The position numbers were made by a program, and so were the translations under genes. This document shows positions 9,406 through 26,700 of a stretch of DNA of 35,454 nt, in pieces. The notes beneath the pieces are model-generated. The model was given only the letters and a program-made list of their open reading frames with translations, made no database searches and was not told the DNA's origin. The DNA is from a virus (taxonomy: Duplodnaviria; Caudoviricetes). Location: the IMG/VR virus record IMGVR_UViG_3300049192_000018, positions 1-35,454 of that record. One strand, given 5' to 3'. Position 1 is the stretch's first letter; every line of letters begins with the position of its first letter.

Positions 9406-9805
9406 GCGCCAAAGCCTTGCATGACCCATGCGGACGGCATGCGGCACACACATCATTGATGTTGTCTGCCTTGCATGCGCCTTCCTTGATAGCCATCCGC
9501 TTGCTAAACGAGTATGGGCCATCCAGGCTTGACGCCCGTTCGTCAGCTGGCACCAATTCGCCAGCCTGGTTGTCGTTCACCGCAGCCGGAACCGGATAAC
9601 GCAATTCCAGCAGCAGCTGCAGTTCGTGCAGGGCCTTTTCAATATCCTGGCGGCCCTTGCCTGTCGGCTTGTCGTGGCGCGTCAGGCGCTTGACCACGCA
9701 GCCTTCCAGGAAGTCCAGGCGGTTTGCCTCGATATACTGGATGGGCTGAATGGCGCAGTCTTTGTAATGCGTGCCGCCAATCTGGACGGACAGAGCAGTG
9801 GTCAT
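9398..9805 (-). CDS. DUF3310-like phage protein
   Basis: QIGG.HYK...IQPI.YIEAN.L.F.EG.VVK...R...K..G..D..KA. Confidence 0.8.
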   Translation of the reverse strand: MTTALSVQIGGTHYKDCAIQPIQYIEANRLDFLEGCVVKRLTRHDKPTGKGRQDIEKALHELQLLLELRYPVPAAVNDNQAGELVPADERASSLDGPYSFSKRMAIKEGACKADNINDVCAACRPHGSCKALAHD

Positions 9806-10020
9806 GTTGGTTTGTCGTCTTTCTTGATGTTGTCGTTTGCCGCTTCCCAGGCTTCCAGTTCAGCGACGGGATAGAGAACCTTCGAACCGCGCTTGATGAA
9901 GGGCGGATGTTTTTCAGGGTGCTGGCTTCGTTGGTTGGCCAGCGTTCCCTTTTTAAAAACACCGCCCCAACGTTCCACCAGTTCGTCGGGCGTGATGTAC
10001 TTCTTTGCTGCTACGGTCAT
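9802..10020 (-). CDS. Excisionase-like HTH protein
   Basis: YITPDELVERW....GTLAN.R....PPFIK.G.KVLYP; small basic protein in operon converging on int. Confidence 0.8.
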   Translation of the reverse strand: MTVAAKKYITPDELVERWGGVFKKGTLANQRSQHPEKHPPFIKRGSKVLYPVAELEAWEAANDNIKKDDKPT

Positions 10021-10035
10021 TGGTCCTGTTCCGTC

Positions 10036-10998
10036 TTAGGCCGCCTGGCCGGAAAGTTCTGCGTTCAAGTCGTCAACCGCAGCCTGGTCAGTGCTGGTGC
10101 GCTGTGCGTCGAATGCAGCGGCGGAATTCTTGAACACGTCGGGGCATTTTCCATCAGGGCTGATGGCCTTGCGGATCGCAGCAGGCAGCGCCTTCCAGGC
10201 ATCGACCAGTGCAGCCATGCCCTGTTCACACACCAGGTTCAGGTTACTGCGGGCGCGCTCCACTTCAGGGTCCAGCTGCTTGGCGCCATCGACCCAGGCG
10301 CGCAGTGCTGCACCGTCAGCGGCGGTGATGTAGCCTTCGCCACGGCCAAGGATGCCGCGCAGTTCGGAGGGGCATTTCAGCACGTCTTGCGACTTGCCCT
10401 CATTCCACATCATGAGCGATGCGGTCAATTCGAAGCAGAAATTTTTCTCCTGAATCGGCATGACGCCTTGCGGTTCATATTCGGTTTTGCCATCGCGCTT
10501 GACCAGCTTCACTTTTTCGCGCGCCCTCATGCAAGCGATGATGTGGAGAGGCGATTGCAGCAGCGCGTTCATGAAGCGCTTGTGTTCGGCCTTCGCCTTG
10601 TTCCACGCTGGGTTCTTCTGGTTGCCCGCGTGCGCGATGTCCTCCAGGCCGCCGATGCCTTCGAATTCATGCGAGACGCTGTCAATCACCAGCACCTCAA
10701 CTCCCACCTTTTCGAACGCAGCGATTGCGTCGATGTAGCGCTGTGGCGAGAACGGCGCAGTAAGATCGCCAATCAGGAAGCGATGCACTTCACCGTTCGC
10801 ATCAACCAGGCTGTCACTATACAGGCGGCCGCGCTTGTTCTCAGAACAAATGAACCCCACCTTTTTGGCGTCGTAGTTCGCCATACCCCAGGCCAGTTGC
10901 AGCGCCGTGTAAGTCTTGCCGCCACCGGACACGCCGCCCAGTCCAACAACCAACCTCGCGCCCTCGCGTTGTGCTTCTTCGATTTGGAAAATAGTCAT
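10036..10998 (-). CDS. AAA ATPase, Sak4-like recombinase
   Basis: Walker A GVSGGGKT, Walker B VLVIDS; between exonuclease and ssb genes. Confidence 0.85.
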   Translation of the reverse strand: MTIFQIEEAQREGARLVVGLGGVSGGGKTYTALQLAWGMANYDAKKVGFICSENKRGRLYSDSLVDANGEVHRFLIGDLTAPFSPQRYIDAIAAFEKVGVEVLVIDSVSHEFEGIGGLEDIAHAGNQKNPAWNKAKAEHKRFMNALLQSPLHIIACMRAREKVKLVKRDGKTEYEPQGVMPIQEKNFCFELTASLMMWNEGKSQDVLKCPSELRGILGRGEGYITAADGAALRAWVDGAKQLDPEVERARSNLNLVCEQGMAALVDAWKALPAAIRKAISPDGKCPDVFKNSAAAFDAQRTSTDQAAVDDLNAELSGQAA

Positions 10999-11027
10999 GT
11001 AGTGATGCTCTTTCAGGGTAGGAAAAA

Positions 11028-12179
11028 TTACGCGACGCCTTCGACCAGGTGCGCGTTACGGTTCATGTGCCAGGCAGGAAGGCTTATCGTTTCCAGCTTG
11101 TCGCTGTAGCATGGCCACTTGTTCGTGCGCTTGCACTCGGCATAGGTGGCCAGGTCCTGGCGATACTTCGCGCGACCAAGTTCGCGGCCCGCTTCGTCCA
11201 GCTGGTACACAGCCACGCCAAGCGGCTGGCCTTCGACAACTCGCGCGGACTTTTCGACAGCGAGGAACACGAACGCACGCAGCGGACGGCCAACAGCGGC
11301 GCAGCCATCGCGATAGAACGCGTCCTGCGTATCGTAGGACCAGTTTGCAATCGATTTGCTGAAGCCTTCGGCGCTGGCGTCTTCCGTTGTCTTCAGGTCC
11401 ACCACGATGTCGTCTTCGCGCCAGAAGTCAGGACGACAGCGGCACAGTTCGCCCGTTGCTTCATCGACCCAGTACACCGACCGTTCGGCCACGCCTGGTT
11501 TGCCAGTGAGCAGCGCCAGCGCAATCGGGTGCGCATGCACAGCGTCGCGCATGTTCATCAACTGGTCCCACTGTTCAGGTTCCAACACGTTGCGATGGCC
11601 GTTGTTCTTCAGCCATTCTGCTTTCAGTTCGGACCACAGTTGGAACTGAACGCCTTCGGCACGCAGCATCGCAGCCAGTTCTGGAATCGTGCCGCTGGTG
11701 GACAGAAGGCCCTGGCGGCCAGTGTTCGCGCCTTCAATGATGGCCTTCAGTTCCGCCAGCTTCATGCCTTCTAGTTCGTCGCTTGGAATGCGCGTGCCTT
11801 CGTCGGCCAGTTGCTGCACTTCCATGATACGCGCCACCAGGTCTGCCTTGCTGCCACTGGTGGACAGCTTCGCCTGGCGTCGTTCGTTCAGCTTGTTGAC
11901 CATCGCCACCAGTTGGTCCCGCCCGTCCACAGCATCAGGGAAATCCGACTGCCGGATACCCAGGCAATATTCGGAATAGAACAACTGCGGTTCCAGCAAC
12001 AAAGCATGGAATGCAGTGCCGATTGCTTGCGCCGCTGTCGGTTCGTTGTCGTTCGCCGCCAACTGTCGCGCACGGAAGTGCAGCGGGCTGCGTCGAATGA
12101 TCGCCAATCCTGAATTACTGATGCCCGCGCCGCCGTGATATTCGGCGTTCGGGATATTGTCGTAGATGCCCGGAGTCAC
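11028..12179 (-). CDS. RecE/exonuclease VIII-like PD-(D/E)xK nuclease
   Basis: YH...GISNSGL, GTAFH.LLLEP, ERSVYW.D..TG..CRCRPD, VDLKT, Q.AFY. Confidence 0.92.
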   Translation of the reverse strand: MTPGIYDNIPNAEYHGGAGISNSGLAIIRRSPLHFRARQLAANDNEPTAAQAIGTAFHALLLEPQLFYSEYCLGIRQSDFPDAVDGRDQLVAMVNKLNERRQAKLSTSGSKADLVARIMEVQQLADEGTRIPSDELEGMKLAELKAIIEGANTGRQGLLSTSGTIPELAAMLRAEGVQFQLWSELKAEWLKNNGHRNVLEPEQWDQLMNMRDAVHAHPIALALLTGKPGVAERSVYWVDEATGELCRCRPDFWREDDIVVDLKTTEDASAEGFSKSIANWSYDTQDAFYRDGCAAVGRPLRAFVFLAVEKSARVVEGQPLGVAVYQLDEAGRELGRAKYRQDLATYAECKRTNKWPCYSDKLETISLPAWHMNRNAHLVEGVA

Positions 12180-12207
12180 GTCAGTTCCTTATCGATTGGA
12201 AAGTTTT

Positions 12208-12216
12208 ATTCTAGCA
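12208..12216 (-). promoter_or_regulatory. Leftward extended -10 promoter for recombination operon
   Basis: Minus strand TG-C-TAGAAT about 30 nt upstream of the exonuclease GTG; RBS AAGGA. Confidence 0.55.
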
Positions 12217-12338
12217 CAACCGTTGCTTGTGGTTATGCTTGTCGATGCAAAATTATTCCGCGTGAATTCTTCGTGCTCCATCGCACTTTTGCTTCGATGC
12301 AAATCATTCGTACACACGCGGATTGCTTTTATTTCCCG

Positions 12339-12752
12339 TCACGATTTCAGCGCAATCCGCTGGGTGTCCATTTTGGACAACATCGCCGATGCTCCGTGGA
12401 TAAGTTGTAAAACTGCATCATTGAGCGCGGCAATTCGCGCGGACACTTCGGGCTTGTGGATCGATATGCACCACTGCTTACGACTATTGGCTATGACCAG
12501 GCCGCGCATTTCCAGGTCGGCAAGTTTGCGCGTCACTGTTGGTCGCGGCATGCCGATGAATTCCGCAAGCTTGCCTGCAGTCATCGGGCGCTGTTCGCAC
12601 TGCCCGATGTAGATTGCCATGCACAGCAGCAGTGCGTCCGCATCCGATGCAGGGTATTCGGAATCCAGGAACGCTGTTGCAATTAGCCTTGCCATGTCCA
12701 GCAACAGCTTCGCTACGACGTAGCCTGGCCTGTCCTTCCTTGCCTTGGGCAT
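12339..12752 (-). CDS. Winged-helix transcriptional regulator
   Basis: PMTAGKLAEFIGMPRPTVTRKLADLEMRGLV; start moved to MPKARK after GGAGG; sits at the divergence point. Confidence 0.8.
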   Translation of the reverse strand: MPKARKDRPGYVVAKLLLDMARLIATAFLDSEYPASDADALLLCMAIYIGQCEQRPMTAGKLAEFIGMPRPTVTRKLADLEMRGLVIANSRKQWCISIHKPEVSARIAALNDAVLQLIHGASAMLSKMDTQRIALKS

Positions 12753-12781
12753 TTCACATCCTCCCACAAATCAGTTAGGCG

Positions 12782-12812
12782 TTGCTCGCGCGCATTGGTT
12801 GCGCGTTATAAT
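12782..12812 (+). promoter_or_regulatory. Rightward promoter with palindromic operator candidate
   Basis: TATAAT at 12807-12812; CGCGCA-N5-TGCGCG palindrome at 12789-12805. Confidence 0.55.
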
Positions 12813-12837
12813 TTCTTATTTCCAAACACACACAGTT

Positions 12838-14247
12838 ATGCAGATACAACTACGCGAAGATCAGGCAGACCTGGTAGGCCGCACACGCGCCGCACTAAAA
12901 CGCAATCGCCGCGTACTTCTGCAGTCACCAACCGGCAGCGGCAAAACGGTGATGGCTTCCTACATCGCAGGCCAGGCAGCGGATAAAGGCGCTGATACCT
13001 GGTTCATCTGCCATCGTGTCGAATTACTGGACGGGACCAGTAAAACATTCGCGAAGTTCCGCATCAACCACGGATTCATTGCCGCAGGCATGCCGATGAA
13101 CACGCGCATGCCAGTGCAAATCTGCAGCATCGACACGCTGAAAGGACGATTAGACAAACTGCGCGCACCACGCATTGCGATCATTGACGAGTGCCACCAC
13201 GGCGGCGCAGCAGGATGGGCTGCCGTCATCAAATGGCTGACGGACAACGGCACGCTGGTCATCGGCCTGTCGGCCACGCCATGGCGGCTTGATGGTGGCG
13301 GACTGGATGCGCACTTTGACGAACTGATACCTGGGCCGACACCAGCGTGGCTGATGCAGCAAGGCTTCCTGTCCGACTATCGCATTTGGGTTCCGAATGG
13401 CGGCATGGACGTATCTGGCGTTGGCAAGCGGATGGGCGACTATATCGCTGGCGAAGTCGAAGCTAAAGTGGATAAGCCGAAGCTGCTGGGCGACATCATT
13501 ACGCACTGGCGCAGGCACGCTAACGACGAACTTACTGTGGGCTTCGCGCCGTCGCTCGCGTTCAGCCAGTACATGGCCGACCAGTTCAACGCCGCTGGCA
13601 TCCCAAGTGCACACCTGGACGGCAACACGGATAAGGGCGAGCGCCGCCGCGTTATCCAGGCGTATGCCGACCGGCGCATTCTGGTGTTGTGGAACAAAGG
13701 ACTATTTGCTGAAGGCTTCGACATCGCCGCAGTCGCGCAGCGCGACGTGACGATTAAAGCCGTCATCGACGCAGCACCGTCAGCATCGCTGTCACAGGTG
13801 ATGCAGCGCTGGGGGCGCGCGTTGCGTCCAGGCGACACTGCCAAGCTGCTGGACCACGCGGGCAACAGCAACCGCCACGGCTTCCCTGATGACGAACGCG
13901 AATGGACGCTGGAAGGGCGCATGAAGACGCCGAAGGCAGCGAACGACAACGCGCCACCGCCGCCAGTGACGTGCGAGCAGTGTTTTATGCAGATACGCAG
14001 GCCAGTTCCTGAGTGCTGCCCAGGCTGCGGCAAGCTACTGGTGAAAGAACACAAGCCGCTGGAATTCGGCGAAGGTGAACTGAAGGAAGCGACCGCCGAA
14101 GACAAGCGCGCAACACGCGCACGACTGCTGGCAGAGCAAGCCGCCTGCAAAGACCTGGGCGCACTCGCCGACCTGGGCCGCAAACGTGGCTACAAAAACC
14201 CGTTGGTGTGGGCTGGCAAAGTCATGGGCGGGCGTCGTCGCAAATAA
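12838..14247 (+). CDS. Superfamily II DNA helicase (DExH) with C-terminal zinc ribbon
   Basis: Q motif LREDQ, SPTGSGKT, DECHH, SATP, Q..GRALR, C..C..C..C; start moved to ATG 12838. Confidence 0.94.
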   Translation: MQIQLREDQADLVGRTRAALKRNRRVLLQSPTGSGKTVMASYIAGQAADKGADTWFICHRVELLDGTSKTFAKFRINHGFIAAGMPMNTRMPVQICSIDTLKGRLDKLRAPRIAIIDECHHGGAAGWAAVIKWLTDNGTLVIGLSATPWRLDGGGLDAHFDELIPGPTPAWLMQQGFLSDYRIWVPNGGMDVSGVGKRMGDYIAGEVEAKVDKPKLLGDIITHWRRHANDELTVGFAPSLAFSQYMADQFNAAGIPSAHLDGNTDKGERRRVIQAYADRRILVLWNKGLFAEGFDIAAVAQRDVTIKAVIDAAPSASLSQVMQRWGRALRPGDTAKLLDHAGNSNRHGFPDDEREWTLEGRMKTPKAANDNAPPPPVTCEQCFMQIRRPVPECCPGCGKLLVKEHKPLEFGEGELKEATAEDKRATRARLLAEQAACKDLGALADLGRKRGYKNPLVWAGKVMGGRRRK

Positions 14248-14260
14248 TTTGCTGATTTAC

Positions 14261-14290
14261 TTGCGCAAATATTTATGGCCGGGTTAGAAT
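14261..14290 (+). promoter_or_regulatory. Sigma70-type promoter
   Basis: TTGCGC-18 nt-TAGAAT in AT-rich intergenic gap. Confidence 0.6.
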
Positions 14291-14345
14291 TGCATCACTG
14301 CAGCAAAACAACTGCAGGTTTTCCGACAAACAACGAAAGGAATGT

Positions 14346-14750
14346 ATGGAAGCGAAGAACTTTGCAGTGGGTCAAATCTGGAAAGCGCGCGACGGTTCGA
14401 TCGCGGAAATCACGGATGTTAGCGGTGTTGAAGGCGCTGACTATCCAGTAACTGCGCACAACATCAATAACGACGAACGAAATTGTTTCACTATGGAAGG
14501 GCGCTACTTCAAGGGCGAGCACGCACAGGAATTCCACCTGGACCTGGTGAAGCGAGTGCCAGATGAAGAAGTCGCCGAAGAAGAAGACCACAAAGCCATG
14601 CTGGAATTTCAGCGCGTCGTTGACGCCCGCAATTTCGCTGACCAGCTGATGCTGGCGCTGGCAAGCAATCCAACCGAAATCATGACGCCCGACGCAATCG
14701 TGCATTACACGCAGTCGGTGCTGGACCTGCGCAAGACGCTGCAGTTCTGA
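14346..14750 (+). CDS. Hypothetical phage protein
   Basis: RBS AAAGGA, codon usage like neighbours; VGQ.WKARDG...YPV motif seen in phage proteins. Confidence 0.8.
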   Translation: MEAKNFAVGQIWKARDGSIAEITDVSGVEGADYPVTAHNINNDERNCFTMEGRYFKGEHAQEFHLDLVKRVPDEEVAEEEDHKAMLEFQRVVDARNFADQLMLALASNPTEIMTPDAIVHYTQSVLDLRKTLQF

Positions 14751-14780
14751 AAACCGCCACCTAAATACTGAAAGATAATT

Positions 14781-15293
14781 ATGCGCCTGACCAATATCAT
14801 CCGCGACGCCTTCGTGCGCGCCGCGATGCAAGACGTACCGCAAACCGACTATGTAGAAGAAATGCGCAAAGTCGCGCAGGACGACGCCGTTGCGCAGCTT
14901 CCGCCGAAGGTTCGCGCGCTGTACCAGGACAAAGAACTGTCGCATTACGTGAACACCGTCTATCGCAGCCACGGCGGCTATGGTGTCAATGTTCCTGGTG
15001 CGGGCGACTTCAGCCTGACCGACAAGGCCAAGGCCAAGATAAGCGAAATGCGTGCCGCGCTTGAAGCGCAACAGGAGCGCATGAAGGGCCTGCAGAACAA
15101 GCTGCGCAACTGCGCATATGGCTGCAAGACACGCAAAGCACTGGTGGACATGCTGCCGGAATTCGAAAAGTACCTGCCAGCTGATGACGCTGCCGCGTGC
15201 CGCACGCTTCCAGCAGTAGCGAACGTGGTCAGCGAGTTTGTGAAGGCTGGCTGGCCGAAGGACGCAAAGAAGCAGACGAAGAAGGCTGCCTAA
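14781..15293 (+). CDS. Nmad5-like (nucleotide-modification associated domain) protein
   Basis: MRLT..IRD N-terminus and T.K.L...LPE C-terminal pattern recalled for this family. Confidence 0.65.
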   Translation: MRLTNIIRDAFVRAAMQDVPQTDYVEEMRKVAQDDAVAQLPPKVRALYQDKELSHYVNTVYRSHGGYGVNVPGAGDFSLTDKAKAKISEMRAALEAQQERMKGLQNKLRNCAYGCKTRKALVDMLPEFEKYLPADDAAACRTLPAVANVVSEFVKAGWPKDAKKQTKKAA

Positions 15294-15343
15294 TCGTTAA
15301 ACGCGCCGCCAGCATGGGGCGCATCCACTTCAAAGGATCACCC

Positions 15344-15505
15344 ATGCTTCACACTCGCAAAGCACAGACCGCAGAAGACCAGGCAGCGATGGCCGAGCGC
15401 AACGCGCGCCGTGTTGAAATTGCCAAACGCAAGCTGGGCCAGCGCTACGCGCACCATCCAGCGAATCACGTGCAGCGCCAGAGCGAGCGCCGCCAGCCTA
15501 CATAA
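15344..15505 (+). CDS. Small basic hypothetical protein (53 aa)
   Basis: RBS AAAGGA then MLHTRK...; stop overlaps next start (TAATG). Confidence 0.7.
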   Translation: MLHTRKAQTAEDQAAMAERNARRVEIAKRKLGQRYAHHPANHVQRQSERRQPT

Positions 15506-16146
15506 TGGCCCGCTACCACGTCCGCTGCCGAAAGTGCGAGGCGCGGCATGTATTCCGAATGATGCCCGATGAATACGTGCGCATTCCGTCGTGCAGAAAC
15601 TGCGGCCAGAAATCGTTTCGCATTGACCGCTGGATGAACCTACGCGACACGAAGGCAACGGCGTGCAGCTGCAACGGCTATGTGGTGCTGACACATCGCG
15701 CACCATGGCCACACCGCATCGGCAGCCCGTACTGCTGGTACAGGAAGGACGGCAGCCAGCGCATGCCTGGCGATGCCGATTTTAAAGACTATCAAATGGA
15801 GCAGACAATGAAAGCATTACCTAAAATCTACGCATTCTCTAACGTGAAGGGCGGCGGCGACGGTATCGCCTACGCGATGGCCGAAGACGGCACTGTGCTG
15901 GGTTCGCACTGGTGCAGCAACGAATGCTATGTGCCTGGCGACCTGGGCGTGACGCCTGGCAGCCGTCCTGATCGGCATGAAGACTTCCGCAAGCACTACC
16001 CATATGGCTACGAAATGGAGTTCGTGCCAGCAGTCAGTGTGATGACGCACGAAGGGCTGGCGAAAGCGTTCAAGCTGAACCAGGAACAGGCAGCAGCGGA
16101 CAAGGCTGCAAACGACAACAATAATTCGTCGGCACAAGCCGTCTAA
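15505..16146 (+). CDS. Cys-rich hypothetical protein fused in frame to a second module (internal start 15808)
   Basis: CRKC...CRNC...C.C...HR..SPYC N-half; GGAG-N7-ATG at 15808. Confidence 0.75.
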   Translation: MARYHVRCRKCEARHVFRMMPDEYVRIPSCRNCGQKSFRIDRWMNLRDTKATACSCNGYVVLTHRAPWPHRIGSPYCWYRKDGSQRMPGDADFKDYQMEQTMKALPKIYAFSNVKGGGDGIAYAMAEDGTVLGSHWCSNECYVPGDLGVTPGSRPDRHEDFRKHYPYGYEMEFVPAVSVMTHEGLAKAFKLNQEQAAADKAANDNNNSSAQAV

Positions 16147-16167
16147 TATTCGGAAGGAGCAAGGACT

Positions 16168-17082
16168 ATGACGAAACCCAGCTGGCGTTCACTGATCGAC
16201 GCCAAGATTATCAAGCGCACCGACAACGGCATGGCAGTTCGGCCCGATGCAATCCGCATCATCGACGGGTTTAACCTGCGCGACACGACGGACCCGGATT
16301 ACCGCGCCGAACTGGACAGCCTGAAAGCACACATCAAGCGCGGCGGAAAAGTGCCACCGCTGGAAGTCGTTGTGTCCGACGACGGCCTGGGCGTAGATGT
16401 CGTGGACGGCCACCGCCGAACAGCAACTTACTGGGAGCTGATCGAAGCTGGCGATCCAATCGAATGGATTCGCATCGAACCGTTCGTGGGCAACGATGTG
16501 GACCGCACGGTGCGCATCATGACCAGCCAGGAAAACCGCAAGCTGAAGCCGCTGGAAATCGCAGCTGGCTATGCCCGCCTGATCGCGTTCGGCCTGTCGC
16601 CTGAAGACATCGCCCGCCGCGTCGGTAAGACCCGCCAGCACGTGGACCAGATGCTGGTTCTGACGAGCGCGCCGCATGCTGTTCAGCAGCTGGTAAAGGA
16701 TGGCAGCGTGTCGGCAACCGAAGCCATCAACCAGGTGCGTGCGCATGGTGACAAGGCCGCCGACAAGCTGGTGCAGGCGAAGCAGGCCAACGGCGGGAAG
16801 AAGGTCACTGCCAAGGCGCTGAAGCCGTGGACGCCGCCAGCAGCTGCTGTGCAGCCTGTTGTCGAAGCGCTGGACGCCCTGCACACGAAGCTGGACCCGA
16901 AAACGCGCATGGCGCTGCTGAACGAACCGGACGAATTCGCGCACGTCAGCATTTCGGCGCGCGTCGTGTATCAGCTGCTGAGCCAGCACGGCTGTATCGC
17001 CGAACTGCGCGAGAAGGCCGAACAGAAGCTGCGCGAGAAGCAGAACCAGGTGGCGCAGGGTGAACTTGCTGAAGGTGCGTGA
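16168..17082 (+). CDS. ParB/Srx-like protein with HTH
   Basis: GFNLR, VVDGHRR, LKPLE.A..Y.RL...G....IARRVGKT..HV.Q.L.L. Confidence 0.88.
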   Translation: MTKPSWRSLIDAKIIKRTDNGMAVRPDAIRIIDGFNLRDTTDPDYRAELDSLKAHIKRGGKVPPLEVVVSDDGLGVDVVDGHRRTATYWELIEAGDPIEWIRIEPFVGNDVDRTVRIMTSQENRKLKPLEIAAGYARLIAFGLSPEDIARRVGKTRQHVDQMLVLTSAPHAVQQLVKDGSVSATEAINQVRAHGDKAADKLVQAKQANGGKKVTAKALKPWTPPAAAVQPVVEALDALHTKLDPKTRMALLNEPDEFAHVSISARVVYQLLSQHGCIAELREKAEQKLREKQNQVAQGELAEGA

Positions 17083-18297: not shown

Positions 18298-18310
18298 GGG
18301 CTTTTCTTTT
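18279..18310 (+). terminator. Intrinsic terminator
   Basis: AGCCCAGC-8 nt-GCTGGGCT then TTTCTTTT. Confidence 0.8.
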
Positions 18311-18322
18311 ACTGGGGCGGAT

Positions 18323-19086: not shown

Positions 19087-19124
19087 CGCGCAGTGATCGG
19101 CAATAATTTACATCTAAGTATCCG

Positions 19125-19148
19125 CGCGCATACTTTCTGATGTACAAT
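19125..19148 (+). promoter_or_regulatory. Promoter for HTH/primase operon
   Basis: TACAAT at 19143-19148 in AT-rich gap, CGCGCAT upstream. Confidence 0.5.
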
Positions 19149-19181
19149 TGAGTTTCCAACCAACATTTCATATTGATATTT

Positions 19182-19385
19182 ATGTCCGATCGGAACGAAG
19201 AACTGCGCAAGATCATGCGCGACAACAAGCTGAAGACGCGCGACGTTGCGAAGCTGCTGGGCCGTCAGCCGATCACCGTGCGCATTTGGCTGTGCCAGGG
19301 CGAGAAGACTGACCGCGTGATTCCAGCCGAACAGCTGGACCGCCTGAAAGACAAACTCGCACTGCAGGCAGCCACCAAGAAATGA
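19182..19385 (+). CDS. Cro-like HTH protein
   Basis: LRKIM....LKTRDVAKLLGRQPITVRIW; immediately upstream of primase. Confidence 0.78.
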   Translation: MSDRNEELRKIMRDNKLKTRDVAKLLGRQPITVRIWLCQGEKTDRVIPAEQLDRLKDKLALQAATKK

Positions 19386-21697
19386 CTGCACAGCAACGTC
19401 ACGACTTCAGCGACCTGACGCGCGAAGAAATCAGGGACGCACTGTCCTACATCAACGCGAGCGACCGCGATGCATGGCTGCGCGCTGCGTTTGCGATCCA
19501 GCACGAACTGGGACCGGATGGTTTCGACCTGTGGCACGACTGGAGCCGAACAGGTGATGGCTACAATGAACCCGATGCACGGGCCACCTGGCGTTCGGCG
19601 AAGGCTGGCGGCAACCAAAAAGGCACCGTCACCATCGGTTCGCTGATCGCTGAAGCGCAGGCGTTCGGCTTCAAGTTCAAATCCGAAGACCGCACGCCGA
19701 TTAGCCAGGAAGAAATCGACCGCCGCCAGCGCGAGCGTGACGAACGCGAAGCCCAGGCGAAGGCCGAAGCAGAACGCCGCCGTGCTGATGCATGCCGCAA
19801 GGCCGCTGCCATTTGGGACGCCGCCGAAGACATCGACGGCATGGACCACGCCTACCTGGAGCGCAAGCAAGTTCGCGCCTTCGGGCTGCGCGTCGGCACC
19901 TATCGCGGCATTCCTAACAGCCTGCTGATCCCGCTGCGCCTGATCGACGGCACGCTGGCAAGCCTGCAGGCCATTTTTGAGAACGCCAGCCCGATGCTGG
20001 AAGGGCGGGACCGCGACTACCTGCCAGGCGGCCAGAAGTTCGGCGCGTTCCACATCATCGGCGACAAGCCAAGCGGACTGCAGCCGGTCATCCTGGTGGG
20101 CGAAGGCTATTCGACCTGTGCCAGCGCGCACATGGCCACCGGCTACCCTGTGGCCGTCGCGTTCGACAGCGGCAACCTGCGCAACGTCGGCGCGGCCATG
20201 CGTAACCTGTACCCGAACGCCATCATCATCATGCTGGCCGATAACGACTGCTGGCACGAAGACCCGAACAAGCCGAACGACGGTATGCGCCAGGCAGCAC
20301 AGGCGGCCCAGGTGGCGGCTGCGCTAGTGGCTGTGCCGAAGTTTTCCGACGTGTCGAGCAAGCCGACCGACTTCAACGACTTGCATCTGCTGGACGGCCT
20401 GGACGCTGTGCGCGCGCAGATCGAAGCCGCGCTGCCGAAGAAAGCAGCCAACGACAACGAACCGCTGTATCCGCTGGACGCTCCGATTAATCCGTTCGGC
20501 TACCCGCACCTGTCGGACAAGGGCCAGCCGCTGAACACGGTTGAAAACCTGGAATTCATGCTGGGGCAGTATGGCATCACGGCGCGCTACAACCAGACGC
20601 GCAAGGCCGTGGAAGTCGTGCTGCCAGGCCGTCGCTACACCATCGACAACGCGGCGAACTGCAGCCTGGCCGAACTGACCAGCATAGCCGTGCGCAACCG
20701 CATGCCGCAGTCGAACCTGTCCGACTACACGAAGCTGATTGCCGACCGCAACGCCTACAATCCTGTTTGCGACTGGATCGACAGCCGCCCATGGGATGGC
20801 GTGCCGCGCATCCAGCAGCTGCTGGACACAGTGAAGACTGAAGGCGACCAGGCGCTGAAGGACAAGCTGATGTATCGCTGGCTGCTGTCGGCTGTGGCGT
20901 CCGTGTTCATGCCCTACGACTTCGAAGGACATGGCTGCCTGGTGTTCACCGGACCGCAGGGTATCGGCAAAACTACCTGGTTCCGTCGCCTGGTCCCAGC
21001 CGAACTGCGCCTGGTGCTGACTGGTGCCATGCTGGACCCCGCAGACAAGGACAGCAAAACGCTGGTGCTGTCGCACTGGATTGTAGAACTGGGCGAACTG
21101 GATGCGACATTCAGGAAGGCCGACATTGCTCGCCTGAAATCGTTCATCCCGCTGCCGAGCGACAAGCTGCGCCGTCCGTATGATCGCGTCGAAAGCGAGT
21201 ACCAGCGCCGCACCGTGTTCTGCGCTTCCGTCAACGATGACAAGTACCTGGTGGACGATACCGGCAATCGCCGCTGGTGGACCATTCCAGTGATCTGGAT
21301 CGACTACCGGCACGACATCGACATGCAGCAAGTGTGGGCCGAACTGCTGGTGCATTACCAGCGCGGCGAACAGTTCCACTTGACGCCGGAAGAAAACGAC
21401 GCGCTGGGCAAACTGAACGCTGAACACGAAGCCGTGGACCCAGTAGAGGAAATGATTCTGGCCGCGTTCAAGTGGGACGAAGCGTTGCGCACGTCGCGCA
21501 TGACGGCCAGCGAAGTGCTGGTGGCAATTGGGTTCGACAAGCCGACGAAGGCGAACGCCACGCACGCCAGCAAGGTGCTGAAGAAGCTTACGGGCGGCGA
21601 TCCGAAGAAATCGGGCAGCGCGCGCTACTTCGAAATGCCAGCGCGCACACGTGGCAACAAATCAAATCCGCTGGACGATCCTGACAGGCCATTCTGA
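19382..21697 (+). CDS. DNA primase-helicase (PriCT-2 + Toprim + VirE/VapE-like ATPase)
   Basis: W..WS....Y PriCT-2; YLERK, GEGYST, AFDSGNL, ADND, DFND Toprim; GPQGIGKT, ELGELD, DDTGNRRWW. Confidence 0.94.
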   Translation: MTAQQRHDFSDLTREEIRDALSYINASDRDAWLRAAFAIQHELGPDGFDLWHDWSRTGDGYNEPDARATWRSAKAGGNQKGTVTIGSLIAEAQAFGFKFKSEDRTPISQEEIDRRQRERDEREAQAKAEAERRRADACRKAAAIWDAAEDIDGMDHAYLERKQVRAFGLRVGTYRGIPNSLLIPLRLIDGTLASLQAIFENASPMLEGRDRDYLPGGQKFGAFHIIGDKPSGLQPVILVGEGYSTCASAHMATGYPVAVAFDSGNLRNVGAAMRNLYPNAIIIMLADNDCWHEDPNKPNDGMRQAAQAAQVAAALVAVPKFSDVSSKPTDFNDLHLLDGLDAVRAQIEAALPKKAANDNEPLYPLDAPINPFGYPHLSDKGQPLNTVENLEFMLGQYGITARYNQTRKAVEVVLPGRRYTIDNAANCSLAELTSIAVRNRMPQSNLSDYTKLIADRNAYNPVCDWIDSRPWDGVPRIQQLLDTVKTEGDQALKDKLMYRWLLSAVASVFMPYDFEGHGCLVFTGPQGIGKTTWFRRLVPAELRLVLTGAMLDPADKDSKTLVLSHWIVELGELDATFRKADIARLKSFIPLPSDKLRRPYDRVESEYQRRTVFCASVNDDKYLVDDTGNRRWWTIPVIWIDYRHDIDMQQVWAELLVHYQRGEQFHLTPEENDALGKLNAEHEAVDPVEEMILAAFKWDEALRTSRMTASEVLVAIGFDKPTKANATHASKVLKKLTGGDPKKSGSARYFEMPARTRGNKSNPLDDPDRPF

Positions 21698-22173
21698 TGA
21701 AAACCTTCACCACGTTCGACGGCCACCAGGTTGACGGCAGCAGCGAAGAATGGCGGCACCATTGCGAAGCGCGCACCGTGCTGCGCATGCCGACCAGTGA
21801 GCGTCAGGCGTTCCTGAACCTGGTAGGCAAGCGACGCGGCGACGAAGCGATGAACCAGCTGCGCAATACCGTGCAGCGTATGTGGACCGATGACACAGCG
21901 CGCGAAATCATCGCACTGGCGCGCAAAGACCTGCTGGCGAGCGAACAGCGCCTGGAGCGCATCGGCAGGAACGGAACGCTGGGCGAACGACTTCGCGCTG
22001 GCGTCGAACGAAGGATGCAGGAAATAATTTCAAGCGGCCACACCGCGAGCAATGACAACGACTGGAAGCAACCAGCACCAAAGATGGAAACACCAAAGCA
22101 GCAAACTGCAGCACCACAACGGAAGCCCCATCAGGAACGAGAAGTCCGGGACTGGTGGAACGAAGCAAGTTAG
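21697..22173 (+). CDS. Hypothetical phage protein
   Basis: SEEWRHHCEAR.VL...R..FL..V..RRG motif; TGATG coupling to primase. Confidence 0.78.
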   Translation: MKTFTTFDGHQVDGSSEEWRHHCEARTVLRMPTSERQAFLNLVGKRRGDEAMNQLRNTVQRMWTDDTAREIIALARKDLLASEQRLERIGRNGTLGERLRAGVERRMQEIISSGHTASNDNDWKQPAPKMETPKQQTAAPQRKPHQEREVRDWWNEAS

Positions 22174-22206
22174 AACATTTCATAACCAACGAACTGAAAG
22201 GGAAGC

Positions 22207-23076
22207 ATGAATAAAGTATTTTTTGGTGATTGCCGCGACAGCCTGAAAGAAATGGCGAAAGACGACGTTAGGGTGCAAATGTGCGTTACAAGCCCGCCTT
22301 ACTTCGGTCTGCGCGACTATGGTCATGACGGCCAGGTGGGGCTGGAAGAAACGCCAGATGAATATGTTGCCGCGATGGTAGAAGTATTCCGCGCTGTGCG
22401 CGATGTGCTGGCAGATGACGGCACGCTATGGCTGAATATCGGCGATACCTATGCAGCAAATCGTGGCTACCAGGTTCCAAGCACCAAGGGCGGCGCGAAG
22501 CATGCACCAGCGCAAGGGTTCGAAAACAGCGGAATGAAAGTCCCGCCAGGCATGAAGGCAAAAGACCTGATCGGCATTCCGTGGATGCTGGCGTTCGCCC
22601 TTCGCTCAGATGGTTGGTATTTGCGCCAGGACATCATTTGGAACAAGCCTAACGCGATGCCTCAGAGTGTCCGCGACAGGTGCAACAGCAGTCATGAACA
22701 CATCTTCCTGCTGTCGAAGCGAGGAAAATACTTTTTCGATCACCTAGCAATTCAAGAGCGCGCTGCAAACGACAATGACGGCCAGGCGATGCGCAACAAA
22801 CGTGACGTATGGAGCGTCAACACAAAGGGATACAAGGGCGCACATGATGCAGTTTTCCCGCCAGCGCTTATCGAGCCGTGCATTCTGGCTGGCAGCCGCC
22901 CTGGCGACATCGTACTGGACCCGTTCATGGGCAGTGGCACAACGGCAGCCGTGGCCGTCCAGCATGGCCGCCAGTACATCGGCTGCGAACTGAATCCGGC
23001 ATACGAGCCGCTGCAGATTGAGCGCATCGGCAAGGCGGCCAACGACAACCAACCGAAGGAGGAAGCCGCAGCATGA
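22207..23076 (+). CDS. DNA methyltransferase, N4-C/N6-A beta class
   Basis: VTSPPY catalytic motif before VLDPFMGSGTT SAM-binding motif. Confidence 0.95.
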   Translation: MNKVFFGDCRDSLKEMAKDDVRVQMCVTSPPYFGLRDYGHDGQVGLEETPDEYVAAMVEVFRAVRDVLADDGTLWLNIGDTYAANRGYQVPSTKGGAKHAPAQGFENSGMKVPPGMKAKDLIGIPWMLAFALRSDGWYLRQDIIWNKPNAMPQSVRDRCNSSHEHIFLLSKRGKYFFDHLAIQERAANDNDGQAMRNKRDVWSVNTKGYKGAHDAVFPPALIEPCILAGSRPGDIVLDPFMGSGTTAAVAVQHGRQYIGCELNPAYEPLQIERIGKAANDNQPKEEAAA

Positions 23077-23438
23077 ACAACACACCACACCCTGATGACC
23101 TGGCCGTTGACGCATTCGCAGCGGCCATGAAAGCGAAGATGGCCGACCAGCGCGCGAAAGGATATCAAGGCTGGGAAGACCCCGAACAATGCCCTGCGTC
23201 GCGCCTGCGCCACATGCTGGTGATGCACATCGCCAAGGGCGACCCGGTGGACGTTGGCAACTTCGCCATGATGCTGTTCATGCGCGGCGAACGCACGATG
23301 CGCGAACCGCAGCCATGTGAGGATGCGACCGCACAGCTGGCGCTGGCACGCATCGAAGAACAGCAGGCAAAACGCGACCGCAGGCTGGCAGCTGAGCAGC
23401 GCCGCGATGTGGATCGCCGAAATGCAGGTGCAGCATGA
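23073..23438 (+). CDS. Hypothetical phage protein
   Basis: HPDDLAVDAFAAAMK.K...R.KG..GW...HI.KGDPVDV.NF.MM. Confidence 0.82.
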   Translation: MNNTPHPDDLAVDAFAAAMKAKMADQRAKGYQGWEDPEQCPASRLRHMLVMHIAKGDPVDVGNFAMMLFMRGERTMREPQPCEDATAQLALARIEEQQAKRDRRLAAEQRRDVDRRNAGAA

Positions 23439-23728
23439 AGAATTTCTATGAAGTGGGGCGCGTGTACGTTTGGCAGAACCAGGTGGGCGATTTGGAATGC
23501 TATAACGGCATGGAATGCACCGTGACTGGTCCTGAAGTGGAATTCGTTGCACACCCTGACAACAAAGTCATGGCAGGATGGCCGACAGATACGCCGCTGA
23601 TGCCATGGCATCGTGGCGTGTCAACCTGTCTTTACGCAGTGCCTGGCGACCTACGTCCGAAGAACCCGCCGCCTGGCGAACAGTCCGTGCTGGATATGTT
23701 CAATCTGAACGACCTGGTGGATGCATAG
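23435..23728 (+). CDS. Hypothetical protein
   Basis: ATGA overlap; ends just before terminator. Confidence 0.75.
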   Translation: MKNFYEVGRVYVWQNQVGDLECYNGMECTVTGPEVEFVAHPDNKVMAGWPTDTPLMPWHRGVSTCLYAVPGDLRPKNPPPGEQSVLDMFNLNDLVDA

Positions 23729-23756
23729 CTGGCGCTGTAAGTCGTTTAAACACAAC

Positions 23757-23782
23757 AACCCGCCTCGGCGGGTTTTGTTTTT
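23757..23782 (+). terminator. Intrinsic terminator
   Basis: AACCCGC-CTCG-GCGGGTT then TTGTTTTT. Confidence 0.88.
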
Positions 23783-23802
23783 GCAACAAATCGCGCAAAT
23801 TG

Positions 23803-23833
23803 TTTACACGCGCATATAAACCTGAGGTAGAAT
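23803..23833 (+). promoter_or_regulatory. Sigma70-type promoter
   Basis: TTTACA at 23803 and TAGAAT at 23828, directly after terminator. Confidence 0.55.
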
Positions 23834-23882
23834 GTTGTTCATGGGCGCTGCACTTCGCGGCGCGGAATGAAAGGGCAAGGAA

Positions 23883-24026
23883 ATGAGTGACGCAGAAAAG
23901 ATTGCAATGCTTAAACTTCGTTTGGATCAAATAGTCGGCGAAATCAGCGTCCACGGTTCAATCGACTACCGAGATTGGCGAGTAGAAAAAGCCAAAGAAT
24001 TGCTGGAATTGCTGAAAGCCGCCTAA
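23883..24026 (+). CDS. 47-aa hypothetical protein (below ORF-track cutoff)
   Basis: MSDAEKIAMLKLRLDQIVGEISVHGSIDYRDWRVEKAKELLELLKAA*; purine-rich RBS; first gene after promoter. Confidence 0.7.
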   Translation: MSDAEKIAMLKLRLDQIVGEISVHGSIDYRDWRVEKAKELLELLKAA

Positions 24027-24071
24027 ACCAACCCCGCGCCCTTCGGGGCGCATCATCGAAAGGACAAGAGA

Positions 24072-24233
24072 ATGTACAAGTACAACGTTTATCACCTGGG
24101 CGTGTTCGTTCGCAGCATCCAGGCAAACAGCGCCTATCACGCAATCTCTATGCTCACGAAGGGCCGCTGCGATAAGAGCCAGTACACAGCTATGAACACC
24201 GAAACGCCCTATGTGAACCAGCGCTGGGTTTAG
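24072..24233 (+). CDS. 53-aa hypothetical protein (below ORF-track cutoff)
   Basis: MYKYNVYHLGVFVRSIQANSAYHAISML...QRWV*; RBS AAAGGA. Confidence 0.7.
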   Translation: MYKYNVYHLGVFVRSIQANSAYHAISMLTKGRCDKSQYTAMNTETPYVNQRWV

Positions 24234-24327
24234 CCCGCCCACACCCAGCACCACCACACGCCGCGCACGACGCGGCTTTGTCCGTGAAGGCGTCGGCATG
24301 GGGCTGGCGCGGCAACGAAAGGAATTT

Positions 24328-24744
24328 ATGAAACTCTGCATAGCGTATGCTTCGGGCGGCATGAAGATGCTGGCAACGGTCGATCAGCCTAACGAGTACG
24401 TCGCACACGTGTTTAACAAAGGCGACGGCGATTTTGCCGATGAAATTCTGCAGGCTGTCAACGCACACGACGACCTGGTGGCAAGCAATAAGAAGCTGCG
24501 CGACCGCATCGAAGAAATGAAGCAGTCCGGGCTGGCTATGCTGGAACACGAAGCGAAGCGCACCAGGGAATGCCTGGAACTGCGCGACCAGGTGCAGCAG
24601 CTGATCGATGCGTTGAAACCGCTGATCGAAATCGCGGAAGAACACTGCGATGCTGGCCCGCATGATGAAGGCTGGCAGTCGGATGAACTGCTGGCGAAGA
24701 TCGCTTTTGCGAACGCAGCACTGGCCGCAGCGGGTGCAGCATGA
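24328..24744 (+). CDS. Hypothetical coiled-coil protein
   Basis: RBS AAAGGA before MKLCIAY; AVNAHDDLV and A.AALAAA patterns common in phage accessory proteins. Confidence 0.75.
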   Translation: MKLCIAYASGGMKMLATVDQPNEYVAHVFNKGDGDFADEILQAVNAHDDLVASNKKLRDRIEEMKQSGLAMLEHEAKRTRECLELRDQVQQLIDALKPLIEIAEEHCDAGPHDEGWQSDELLAKIAFANAALAAAGAA

Positions 24745-24851
24745 TGGGCCTGGCTGTGTTTGCTGGCGGTTTCGCCGTCACGTTCGTTGTGCTGGCGCTG
24801 GCTGTGCGGTTGTATTGCCGCATGGCGCGTAAGCAGCACGCTGCGAACTGA
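24741..24851 (+). CDS. 36-aa single-pass membrane peptide
   Basis: MMGLAVFAGGFAVTFVVLALAVRLYCRMARKQHAAN*; ATGA overlap. Confidence 0.6.
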   Translation: MMGLAVFAGGFAVTFVVLALAVRLYCRMARKQHAAN

Positions 24852-24877
24852 AGTCACTTCAACAACCGAAAGGACTT

Positions 24878-25528
24878 ATGGATACCAAACTGAAAGAGGC
24901 TGTGGGGCGTGTGCGGGGATACATGCAGGCACGCGGGCAAAGTTCGCTACTGGACAGGAACGAAATTCACACGATCTATTCGAACGGCTGGCCAGCGTTG
25001 AATATGGATGACCTGCGGGCGCTGGTGGATGGCGTGGAGCAGCGCAGCAAGGACGCCGACAACTGGGCAGGCGCATGTGCTGGTGCTGAAGATGAACGCG
25101 ACCTGGCGCGTGCTGCCTTGGATCGCGCCAGAACCGCCATCAAGGTTGGCATGCCGGAATACAGCCTGGACGACGTGGCGGAAATCATCGAAGCGGGGCT
25201 GGGTGGCCAGGCGGAAAGCGGCAAGCCGTTTACATGGGCGGACCACGTTGCCGTCTTCAATGGCAAGTACAACCAGGTGCGCGACGAAGCGGCGGAATTG
25301 ATCGCGGGGCAGCGCAAGGCCCTGGACGCCTGGAACGACACCCGCACGCAGATTCTGGAAGCGCTGTGCGCGCCTTCGCTGCGTGTTACGCCAGTAGTTG
25401 CGGTGAAGACTTGGCAGGAGCGCGCCGAAGAAAGTGGCGCAGATGCGCTTACCGTAGACCAGTGCATGAAGTTGGCAGAAACGGAAATCGCCGACCTGCG
25501 CGCAGCACTCGCCCAGGTGCGGCAGTGA
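24878..25528 (+). CDS. Hypothetical protein
   Basis: RBS AAAGGA; 216 aa helical ORF in operon direction. Confidence 0.78.
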   Translation: MDTKLKEAVGRVRGYMQARGQSSLLDRNEIHTIYSNGWPALNMDDLRALVDGVEQRSKDADNWAGACAGAEDERDLARAALDRARTAIKVGMPEYSLDDVAEIIEAGLGGQAESGKPFTWADHVAVFNGKYNQVRDEAAELIAGQRKALDAWNDTRTQILEALCAPSLRVTPVVAVKTWQERAEESGADALTVDQCMKLAETEIADLRAALAQVRQ

Positions 25529-25905
25529 TCGACCGAACCGAACGGCTACTGCGCGCCATGCCAGGCACGCACAACGAACTGATCGAGCGCACCGGCATGG
25601 GCAAGTCCACCGTGAAGCGCTGGACGGTGCTGCTGCGGGCCTGCGGATGGGTTCACGTGCCGAAATGGGTGCGCAGTGATGGGCCTGGGCGCATCCAGCC
25701 AGTGTTTCGCGCAGGGCCAGGTGTGAACGTTCCGTGCGACTTGCCTGTGTTGACCCCACAGGAACGCGTCGAGCGGCACCGCAAGCGCGCCAAGCTGTCG
25801 GGCGAACACCAGCACAAGCTGGCCAGGGAGCGAGCGCAGAAGAAAGCGGCTCGCGTTCGAAAACGTGGAAGACCTGCGACGCCGTGGGATGCGTTGATGA
25901 TGTGA
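25525..25905 (+). CDS. Basic winged-HTH protein
   Basis: GTGA overlap start; THNELIERTGMGKSTVKRWT..L...GWVH. Confidence 0.72.
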   Translation: MIDRTERLLRAMPGTHNELIERTGMGKSTVKRWTVLLRACGWVHVPKWVRSDGPGRIQPVFRAGPGVNVPCDLPVLTPQERVERHRKRAKLSGEHQHKLARERAQKKAARVRKRGRPATPWDALMM

Positions 25906-25908
25906 GAG

Positions 25909-25931
25909 AACCCGCCTAGTGCGGGTTTTTT
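25909..25931 (+). terminator. Intrinsic terminator
   Basis: AACCCGC-CTAGT-GCGGGTT then TTTT. Confidence 0.9.
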
Positions 25932-25941
25932 CATGCCCGCA

Positions 25942-26161
25942 AAATCGCTTGTCCCACATTGCCCCTGTCAGTCTCTTGTTTGTCCCAACATAACTATCTG
26001 ATTATTAAGTACTAAGTACTACTTGGGACAAGTGGGACAAGATATTTATAAAAACATAGAAGCTATCGATAGAGAATATGCGCATGCATAATAGCCCGTA
26101 CCCTTTTTTATAAATCGCGTCCCACTTGTCCCTTTGTCCCAAATTGCTGTTGCTTGTCCCA
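25942..26161. repeat. Iteron array, putative replication origin
   Basis: Eight (TT)GTCCC(A) copies in both orientations around an AT-rich core; non-coding. Confidence 0.78.
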
Positions 26162-26247
26162 AACATCACGCATGAAACATTGCGCGTTCGTATCTATTTC
26201 CACTCGCCTATATTACAATTCGGCATCTACATTTCACGGATGCCAAC

Positions 26248-26700
26248 ATGGAATTGCCTGCAAGTGTTCAGGAGATAGCTGACGTTATCGGGCGTGACAA
26301 AGCGTTATTGCTGATCGGGAAATTGCCGAAGGCTTACAGTCGCGACAAGCGATGGCCAGGCGCGCAGAAGTCCACACTGGTGATGTACGTGCCGACCGTG
26401 AAGCGCCTGGGCCTGGACCACTTCCTGGTCAAGACGCTGGGCTACATCGACGCAGTGAAGATGTGCGAAGCGTTCGGCGGCGAAATCATGTATCCGGCCA
26501 GCTGCGCGAACATTCACCGTAAATTCAGGGACGACAGCATTCTGGCGATGATGCGCACTGGAATGCGCGCGCAGACCGTTGCGGCAATCGTCGGCGTGTC
26601 GGATAGGCATGTGCGCAATCTGGTGAAGGAAAACCCACCAGAGGTTTGCCGTCTGGCATCTAACGATAATGCGGAGGTCAACAACGAGGCCGCCGCTTAA
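26248..26700 (+). CDS. Mor/C-like transcription activator (late gene regulator)
   Basis: LP...QEIADVIG...AL.L, A.K.C..FGGE..Y, RD..I......G......A...GVS.RHV..L; directly upstream of lysis genes. Confidence 0.78.
   Translation: MELPASVQEIADVIGRDKALLLIGKLPKAYSRDKRWPGAQKSTLVMYVPTVKRLGLDHFLVKTLGYIDAVKMCEAFGGEIMYPASCANIHRKFRDDSILAMMRTGMRAQTVAAIVGVSDRHVRNLVKENPPEVCRLASNDNAEVNNEAAA
26631..26670 (+). promoter_or_regulatory. Activator-dependent promoter candidate B (lysis/terminase operon)
   Basis: AAACCCACCAGAGG + 20 nt + GATAAT. Confidence 0.72.

Follow-up and report, generated by a model that had tools for sequence, protein, structure and literature searches.

Why would one phage write the same five residues into nine of its proteins? 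The question is raised by the virus record IMGVR_UViG_3300049192_000018, a partial record analysed here over its whole stretch of 35,454 bases (the window), in which the part from the capsid end to the sheath start is missing. The peptide, A(A/S/V)NDN, resembles the head of the ssrA tag that transfer-messenger RNA (tmRNA) adds to proteins and that the adaptor SspB tethers to the protease ClpXP; the original prediction read it as a phage-wide degron programme, or as a means of titrating SspB. We find a peptide that marks one clade of phages and matches the tag head of alphaproteobacteria, and that likely docks pro-lytic proteins on host SspB.

Ten copies in nine non-virion proteins

A six-frame scan of the window gives exactly 10 matches to A-x-N-D-N, all in frame, in nine open reading frames (ORFs), with seven copies on the plus and three on the minus strand. 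This bears out the ten in-frame copies in nine non-virion proteins first described; nine copies lie where they had been placed, and AVNDN ends at 9583 rather than 9586.

9569..9583, minus strand: AVNDN in ORF 9398-9805, after its PHROG-matched domain
9829..9843, minus strand: AANDN in the Xis-like protein (9802-10020), in the C-terminal tail, 13 residues from the end, no Ala-Ala end
12045..12059, minus strand: AANDN in the exonuclease VIII-like protein (11028-12179), residues 41-45, in a loop between two helices
13936..13950, plus strand: AANDN in the helicase (12838-14247), residues 367-371, in a disordered linker
16105..16119, plus strand: AANDN in the C-terminal tail of the product of ORF 15505-16146, which ends AQAV
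20444..20458, plus strand: AANDN in the primase-helicase (19382-21697), in the linker between the Toprim and VapE domains
22045..22059, plus strand: ASNDN in the DUF7696 protein (21697-22173), after the domain
22762..22776, plus strand: AANDN in the N6/N4 DNA methyltransferase (22207-23076), inside the Pfam span
23035..23049, plus strand: AANDN in the tail of the same methyltransferase, 13 residues from its AAA end, a full tag-like tail
26656..26670, plus strand: ASNDN in the tail of the Mor-like late activator (26248-26700), 14 residues from its AAA end, a full tag-like tail

Seven of the ten copies read AANDN and the remainder ASNDN or AVNDN. The synonymous variation noticed at the outset is seen at the Ala, Asn and Asp codons (all four Ala codons, AAC and AAT, GAC and GAT are used), and 10 of the 11 NDN triplets over six frames belong to the motifs. 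The 31 non-virion genes of the window (6,063 residues) hold 10 motifs against 0.07 expected, and the 18 virion, lysis and packaging genes (4,869 residues) hold none against 0.05 expected. Residue shuffles within proteins (2,000) yield a mean of 0.11 motifs and at most 2, which confirms the enrichment over a shuffled background and rules out chance. Furthermore, AANDN is the most widely shared 5-mer of the window, present in 6 proteins, whereas the best 5-mer of any kind in 200 shuffles reached 4 proteins or fewer.

Two of the ten sites were modelled, the exonuclease loop and the helicase linker. The exonuclease motif block has a predicted local distance difference test score (pLDDT) of 79, compared with 89-98 over other parts of residues 1-380, and the helicase motif lies inside the sole segment of that protein with pLDDT below 50 (residues 362-372). 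Six more sites fall outside matched Pfam or PHROG domains. Four of the ten copies lie within 14 residues of the C terminus, and two of the ten are followed by an Ala-Ala end. No tmRNA gene was found in the window; the motif is gene-encoded, not added by tmRNA.

Two protein labels bear on these sites. The DUF3310 label first given to ORF 9398-9805 is not confirmed, as Pfam offers no support at E<=0.01 and the protein matches PHROG 5839/236 instead; 9 of its 11 homologues carry the motif, which takes 4 different positions among them. Support for the Xis label comes from PHROG 4745 and from synteny with the annotated excisionase of phage HeidiAbel. For ORF 15505-16146, only 1 of 29 homologous matches has the motif, which points to a lineage-specific gain or fusion.

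One peptide across one phage clade

The window phage encodes a contractile tail and an integrase, and its early genes form two divergent operons. Among the datasets listed as containing its sequence, five are soil metagenomes, two of them possibly the source of the record, and none is an RNA dataset. The primase matches Jilinvirus, Harrisonburgvirus, Micavirus, Manovirus, Foxunavirus and phiRSP records, and close relatives are found only in metagenomes; judged by its genes, the phage is a Jilinvirus/Micavirus-like myophage of an uncultured soil lineage. The gene order of the window recurs in Iiscvirinae (Jilinvirus HeidiAbel Bas97), Micavirus, Manovirus, Harrisonburgvirus, Coatlandelriovirus and Foxunavirus. 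The primases of these relatives are 43-55% identical to that of the window over most of the length, and their genomes carry 7-12 motif copies, FoX1 excepted (whole-genome x[ASV]NDN counts: HeidiAbel, an E. coli phage, 7; Mica 12; Persinger 11; phiRSP 12; Mano 12; FoX1 2).

Scans anchored on the helicase contributed a further 11 genome loci and 77 viral loci. The resulting clade set, defined by helicase identity of at least 50%, comprises 54 loci (1.12 Mb; 316,759 residues called with a purpose-made codon-model gene caller) after 11 duplicate or redundant loci were dropped; the clade tree is a quick helicase tree with the motif masked. In this set [APGSV][ASV]NDN occurs in frame 247 times, against 2.2 expected. 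Among 242 matches at the DNA level, 232 lie in the sense frame, 10 outside called genes and none in another frame or antisense, and the wobble bases vary freely. The frame test rules out a DNA or RNA motif and settles the question of non-coding frames, and with the wobble variation it sustains the proposal of selection on the peptide. Loci with helicase identity below 50% have 0 or 1 copy, and host chromosomes of 3-7 Mb have 2-13 matches, many of these inside clade phage contigs. Together, the in-frame enrichment, the wobble variation, the moving sites and the rarity in virion proteins (below) argue for a peptide signal which, as far as sequence can tell, is the property of one clade.

Position 1 is A 140 times, P 42, G 13, S 8 and V 7, and position 2 is A 182 times, V 25 and S 10. 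Asn is near-invariant at position 5; Asp stands there in 9 cases and Glu in 4, with 3.8 and 3.7 expected. Position 6 is aromatic in 11 of 167 unique copies from whole genomes. The codons of N, D and N are all read by queuosine tRNAs; a queuosine-codon sensor was nonetheless rejected, because Asp, Tyr and His at position 5 stay near background (9, 6 and 1).

Virion proteins of the clade hold 3 motifs in 89,997 residues, non-virion proteins 264 in 239,492 and lysis proteins 0 in 5,095. The motif is thus about 33-fold rarer in virion than in non-virion proteins, and the non-virion bias extends to the clade. The stricter statement that terminase and virion proteins carry none is true of this genome but not of its relatives, in which 7 of 27 TerL proteins have a copy, in the tail, besides the three in virion-class proteins. 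A small tail-fibre assembly protein also has the motif in some relatives (3/12; L002 14704-14718 and G649 20035-20325), and possibly acts as a chaperone absent from the finished virion.

The copies lie at a median of 46 residues from the C terminus, many of them internal. Within protein families the site moves: the motif occupies 3 different sites in the helicase (38 of 85 homologues), 6 in the primase (34/63) and 2 in the exonuclease (41/70), these and the following family denominators taking in distant loci. In Mano and three enterobacterial members the usual copy in the helicase linker is missing and another stands elsewhere in the helicase. Xis carries the motif in 36 of 53 homologues, Mor in 15 of 18 and ParB in 2 of 43. 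Integrase (0/36), the helix-turn-helix (HTH) protein at the CI-like position (0/25) and the small repressor (0/39) are free of it. Among database homologues, none of 120 integrases has the motif. In Xis it is present in 100 of 120, at 6-16 residues from the end, a share that is inflated because the Xis profile was built from motif-bearing rows. The corresponding features of the window are as follows; a promoter scan of its divergent region found nothing.

6427..6474, minus strand: 3′ half of tRNA-Gly(TCC), likely attP core, upstream of the integrase
6651..7931, plus strand: tyrosine integrase, motif-free, ends IAA
12339..12752, minus strand: HTH regulator at the CI-like position, between the divergent early operons, motif-free
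19182..19385, plus strand: small repressor-like HTH protein before the primase, motif-free

The motif also follows the integrase at the level of genomes. We compared 26 whole or near-whole genomes, one of which has 4 copies and falls in neither class. An integrase is present in 18 of 19 genomes with at least 5 copies and in 2 of 6 with 3 or fewer; the five integrase-less genomes have 5, 2, 1, 0 and 0 copies against a mean of 8.5, and sit on four or five separate branches of the portal tree. The motif is depleted in integrase-less genomes, and it marks Xis, replication proteins, the late activator and terminase, never integrase or repressor-like proteins.

Other protein ends in these genomes resemble known signals. 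Ala-Ala ends are found in 9 of 31 non-virion and 0 of 18 late proteins of the window, and in about 17% of the non-virion proteins of the clade compared with 2% of its virion proteins (6/329). Overlap with the following start codon is no more frequent among genes with such ends (about half) than among the others, so a separate ClpX-type signal is possible. The window helicase ends GGRRRK (14230-14247, plus strand), a basic tail that resembles the MuA-type ClpX signal and is similar in close homologues. The primase-helicase ends DDPDRPF (21676-21697, plus strand), which resembles the acidic tail of single-stranded DNA-binding protein (SSB), and the phage SSB itself ends DDDDIPFN (8735-8760, minus strand). 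PF is the second commonest end among clade ORFs with internal motifs (27), and that of the primase-helicase is a possible SSB-tail mimic.

Tag, adaptor and host

The E. coli tag is AANDENYALAA (PMC8138137) and the Caulobacter tag AANDNFAEEFAVAA (PMC9393093). The alphaproteobacterial tags that we read begin ANDN in 4 of 4 cases (ANDNYA in Microvirga and Aminobacter, ANDNY in two further genomes), compared with 2 of 29 gamma-class tags (the best 29 of 52 matches, from 61 genomes); Caballeronia has ANDDTF and Cupriavidus ANDERY. In sequence, the motif is the tag head of alphaproteobacteria and not that of most gamma- and betaproteobacterial hosts, which have ANDD or ANDE, so the proposed mimicry of the tag head holds for the former and fails for most of the latter. 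Given Asn5 and these tag heads, the motif fits the alphaproteobacterial adaptor best, for which structures exist (SspB-alpha, 2QAS and 2QAZ). Flynn and colleagues are said to have defined in 2001 an E. coli SspB consensus of A/P/G/S/V at position 1, A/V/S at position 2 and an aromatic at position 7; the phage motif agrees with that consensus at positions 1 and 2 but lacks the aromatic at 7.

The phage motif has the same first five residues as the alphaproteobacterial tag and often stands in flexible tails 8-16 residues from the end, but it is gene-encoded, often internal, and usually has neither an aromatic at position 6 or 7 nor an Ala-Ala end. With the E. coli tag it shares the A-A-N-D head, with Asn instead of Glu at position 5 and Pro instead of Tyr at position 7. 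The motif would thus act in the manner of an ssrA tag head, yet it is no ssrA tag itself.

SspB was found in 38 of 41 alphaproteobacterial genomes and in 4 of 5 genomes with related phages (E. coli and Caulobacter controls were positive), so candidate hosts do possess the adaptor that had been postulated. The exception is a Flavobacterium metagenome-assembled genome with the tag GEGNY and no SspB match, which includes a motif-rich clade member (L013; 38.7 kb, 58% GC); this contig is probably misbinned. In Microvirga alba, sspB lies directly 3′ of the tmRNA gene (L119 / G002:C19 218595-219476). The alpha and gamma tallies of attP, tRNA, tmRNA tag and SspB each include one genome flagged as unpublished, and no claim depends on it.

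Relatives in betaproteobacteria show where the motif drifts. A complete Cupriavidus prophage keeps ANDN at 3 canonical sites, whereas 4 others keep A-A-N with position 5 changed (AANDS twice, AANDE and AANES); such drift at position 5, where the host tag differs, is as predicted for an SspB reader. A Caballeronia phage contig has one motif copy.

The 48-base tRNA-Gly half upstream of the window integrase bears on the host. It is exact in 3 of 121 alphaproteobacterial genomes, including Microvirga alba, and on a Methylobacterium aquaticum replicon, and was found in none of 301 Burkholderiales and none of 201 gamma-class genomes. The phage contig of Microvirga alba, with 9 motif copies and a layout as in the window, has an attP identical to the 3′ half of the host tRNA-Arg, and holds the one close integrase in 121 genomes of the Microvirga family; none was found in 120 scored genomes of the Cupriavidus family. 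Among the 120 closest integrases, the single chromosome-scale match is in Tardiphaga (77%, 6.4 Mb contig), and the two labelled E. coli are on contigs of 1 and 42 kb. These matches suggest, weakly, that the host is likely alphaproteobacterial, and within that class probably one of the Methylobacteriaceae or Nitrobacteraceae. In the closest complete relative (G649), two tRNA-Gly 3′ halves about 1.4 kb apart (~11200 and ~12570) flank a methyltransferase ORF that carries the motif and adjoins the integrase, an arrangement suggestive of cassette capture at the att site.

A full tRNA-Arg stands beside the integrase of HeidiAbel and Persinger; its acceptor end is found in 3 of 3 alphaproteobacterial hosts and 1 of 37 gamma-class genomes, and it is at most 84% like E. 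coli tRNA-Arg. Full tRNA-Arg(TCT) genes of alphaproteobacterial type adjoin the integrase at L001 22822-22895, L003 24957-25035 and G002:C7 40253-40312, and over the stretch compared, Persinger (a phage isolated on Pseudomonas) and the Microvirga phage contig do not differ.

Prophages of the group are stated to exist in E. coli and Aeromonas in the BASEL paper (PMC11990801). A match was present in 47 of 5,426 E. coli genomes, of which one chromosomal and one plasmid form were inspected. As resident relatives of the clade these were rejected: the matched element is a 9-kb satellite-like one with no motif in its annotated genes. It carries an integrase, a VapE primase and a tape measure next to fis (L152 17174-26486), and the plasmid form (L153) has a related full primase.

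Docking for turnover and competing explanations

The reading that we favour, by a slight balance of probability and from sequence, is that the motif docks pro-lytic proteins on host SspB for SspB-dependent turnover by ClpXP. The [A/P/G/S/V]-[A/V/S]-N-D-N peptide would be displayed in exposed loops and tails and read by SspB, which would tether its bearers to ClpXP. The two window tails of the methyltransferase and the Mor-like activator would act as complete tag mimics. Tails without an Ala-Ala end, such as that of Xis, would behave like the engineered DAS+4, in which an SspB-binding head precedes a weak C-terminal end and degradation depends on SspB (excerpts of PMC3064785 and PMC9382460); they would be stable alone and degraded when tethered, and the spacing of the Xis tail is similar. 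DAS+4 is synthetic, whereas the phage tails are natural and known here from their sequence. Internal copies would provide the tether and would need a separate free end. During lysogeny, Xis, the replication enzymes, the late activator and terminase would presumably be kept short-lived, and their clearance by ClpXP would favour the dormant state. Host proteins with an ssrA tag compete for the adaptor, so that stalled ribosomes could tip the decision in favour of lysis.

Several observations weigh against docking for turnover. E. coli SspB uses Tyr7 of the tag, whereas position 7 of the motif is Pro in 75 and aromatic in 2 of the 167 unique copies. In phages isolated on E. coli, Pseudomonas, Burkholderia, Ralstonia and Achromobacter, 7-12 copies with Asn5 are retained, Asn5 accounts for 12 of 17 four-residue-head matches in cultured gamma phages and 42 of 48 in cultured beta phages, and the enterobacterial lineage has a helicase motif site of its own. 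The E. coli and Caulobacter tag/adaptor pairs have been used orthogonally, according to excerpts of a review (PMC8138137). In VRR-NUC proteins, 18 of 66 of which have the motif, it sits at a helix end inside the folded domain. Across the clade, motif and Ala-Ala end are independent (44/233 versus 159/966, p=0.38), and the coupling that was sought is not found; in the window such ends occur in 2 of the 9 proteins with a motif and in 7 of the 22 non-virion proteins without one, and among database homologues in 14 of 120 Xis tails and, without the motif, in 61 of 120 integrases. With this independence and Ala-Ala ends at 2 of 10 window copies, a phage-wide degron programme in the ssrA sense is not supported. 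The whole-genome p-values of the integrase link (0.002 and 0.005) ignore phylogeny, and the 4-5 independent events give a sign test of 0.06-0.13; on partial loci the link is not significant (p=0.087). In a Roseomonas prophage, whose host is an alphaproteobacterium, an integrase goes with just 2 copies over the 42 kb examined, and another genome with an integrase (G645) has 1 copy. Finally, the window attP half is 2 bases from 4 of 59 gamma-class tRNAs, which makes the host call weak.

Such persistence of Asn5 and Pro7 in phages of gamma and beta hosts whose tags differ is what a reader other than SspB would explain. It could be a hub protein that every phage of the clade encodes, such as the AAA ATPase, or another host factor, the likeness to the tag being convergence or ancestry. 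That several lineages have lost the motif throughout their genomes suggests a single trans-acting reader, from phage or host. We nevertheless think this unlikely: none of 17 virus records matches PF04386 (a phage-encoded SspB) at E<=1, and a gene family shared by every motif-rich genome and missing from the motif-poor ones was sought without success (integrase and Rz track the motif best), although a gene universal to the clade may still serve as reader. Five-residue identity with the alphaproteobacterial tag head, and drift exactly where the beta host tag differs, also speak for SspB.

SspB might, on the other hand, read the motif without destruction, as a sink that stabilises host ssrA-tagged or RseA-like substrates, as a shield from ClpAP, or in remodelling by ClpX. 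The internal position of many copies and the lack of a ClpX C-terminal signal in most would fit, as would two properties of the adaptor in excerpts of the literature: SspB binds the first seven tag residues and blocks ClpAP recognition of tagged proteins (PMC9963277), and it is scarce, with about 50-350 dimers per E. coli cell (PMC9382460). A sink, however, needs one abundant protein, not many enzymes with roughly one copy apiece, and this reading does not explain the absence from integrase and repressor-like proteins, the depletion in integrase-less genomes or the tag-like spacing in Xis. For these reasons the titration first suggested fits worse than docking for turnover, and we give reading without destruction a similarly low rank, if anything a shade lower.

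That the motif works in alphaproteobacterial hosts only, and is a slowly decaying relic in relatives with gamma or beta hosts, would agree with the alpha-type tRNA-Arg acceptor end in the integrase region of Jilinvirus and Persinger and with a decayed exonuclease site in enterobacterial members; some copies might alternatively be helix caps, as the VRR-NUC sites suggest. Flanks have diverged while ANDN stayed, and new sites have arisen within the enterobacterial lineage, which makes this account improbable, although for the window itself the alpha-only relic is compatible with docking on SspB. A nucleic-acid signal, or chance in low-complexity linkers, is scarcely credible, for although the commonest codons give a recurring AACGACAAC nine-mer, the frame test, the free wobble, the shuffles and the few matches in host chromosomes all oppose it.

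Docking of pro-lytic proteins on SspB would have few parallels. RseA binds SspB through a sequence unlike the tag. Besides ssrA-tagged proteins, the review lists one natural SspB substrate, cleaved RseA; RseA(1-108) is gene-encoded like the phage motif proteins, and MuA and lambda O are phage replication or recombination proteins turned over by ClpXP (PMC8138137). These are single proteins with unrelated signals, and in none is a motif repeated across a phage proteome. No published description of the motif was found in open-licence PubMed Central and bioRxiv, a scope outside which lie the BASEL supplements, including the HeidiAbel annotation report. Two papers taken up as leads (PMC13712998 and PMC7226468) were discarded, since their text matches were to 'OceanDNA', 'Brandner' and the SspB of phosphorothioation. 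The present analysis contributes a count over the whole clade and shows that the motif disagrees with most gamma and beta tags, favours Xis over integrase, is depleted where the integrase is lost and is not coupled to Ala-Ala ends; it also supplies a cultured E. coli phage for testing.

According to the BASEL paper, these phages have intact integrase and cI genes, yet temperate behaviour has not been observed in them, which is called enigmatic (PMC11990801). A wider proposal, tentative and on balance unlikely, is that the clade runs an alphaproteobacterial lysogeny programme in which an ANDN degron set acts on SspB and ssrA load tunes lysis and lysogeny, and that cultured members never lysogenise their isolation hosts because both att site and adaptor code are alphaproteobacterial. 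The cultured E. coli K-12 phage HeidiAbel (BASEL collection) makes these ideas testable at once, because it carries seven copies. The alpha-type att/tRNA module and the tag together hint at a reason for the retention of integrase and repressor by Jilinvirus-like phages, which have never been seen to lysogenise. If true, the motif, in about ten proteins per genome, would amount to proteome-wide mimicry of a host motif and a new layer of control over lysis and lysogeny.

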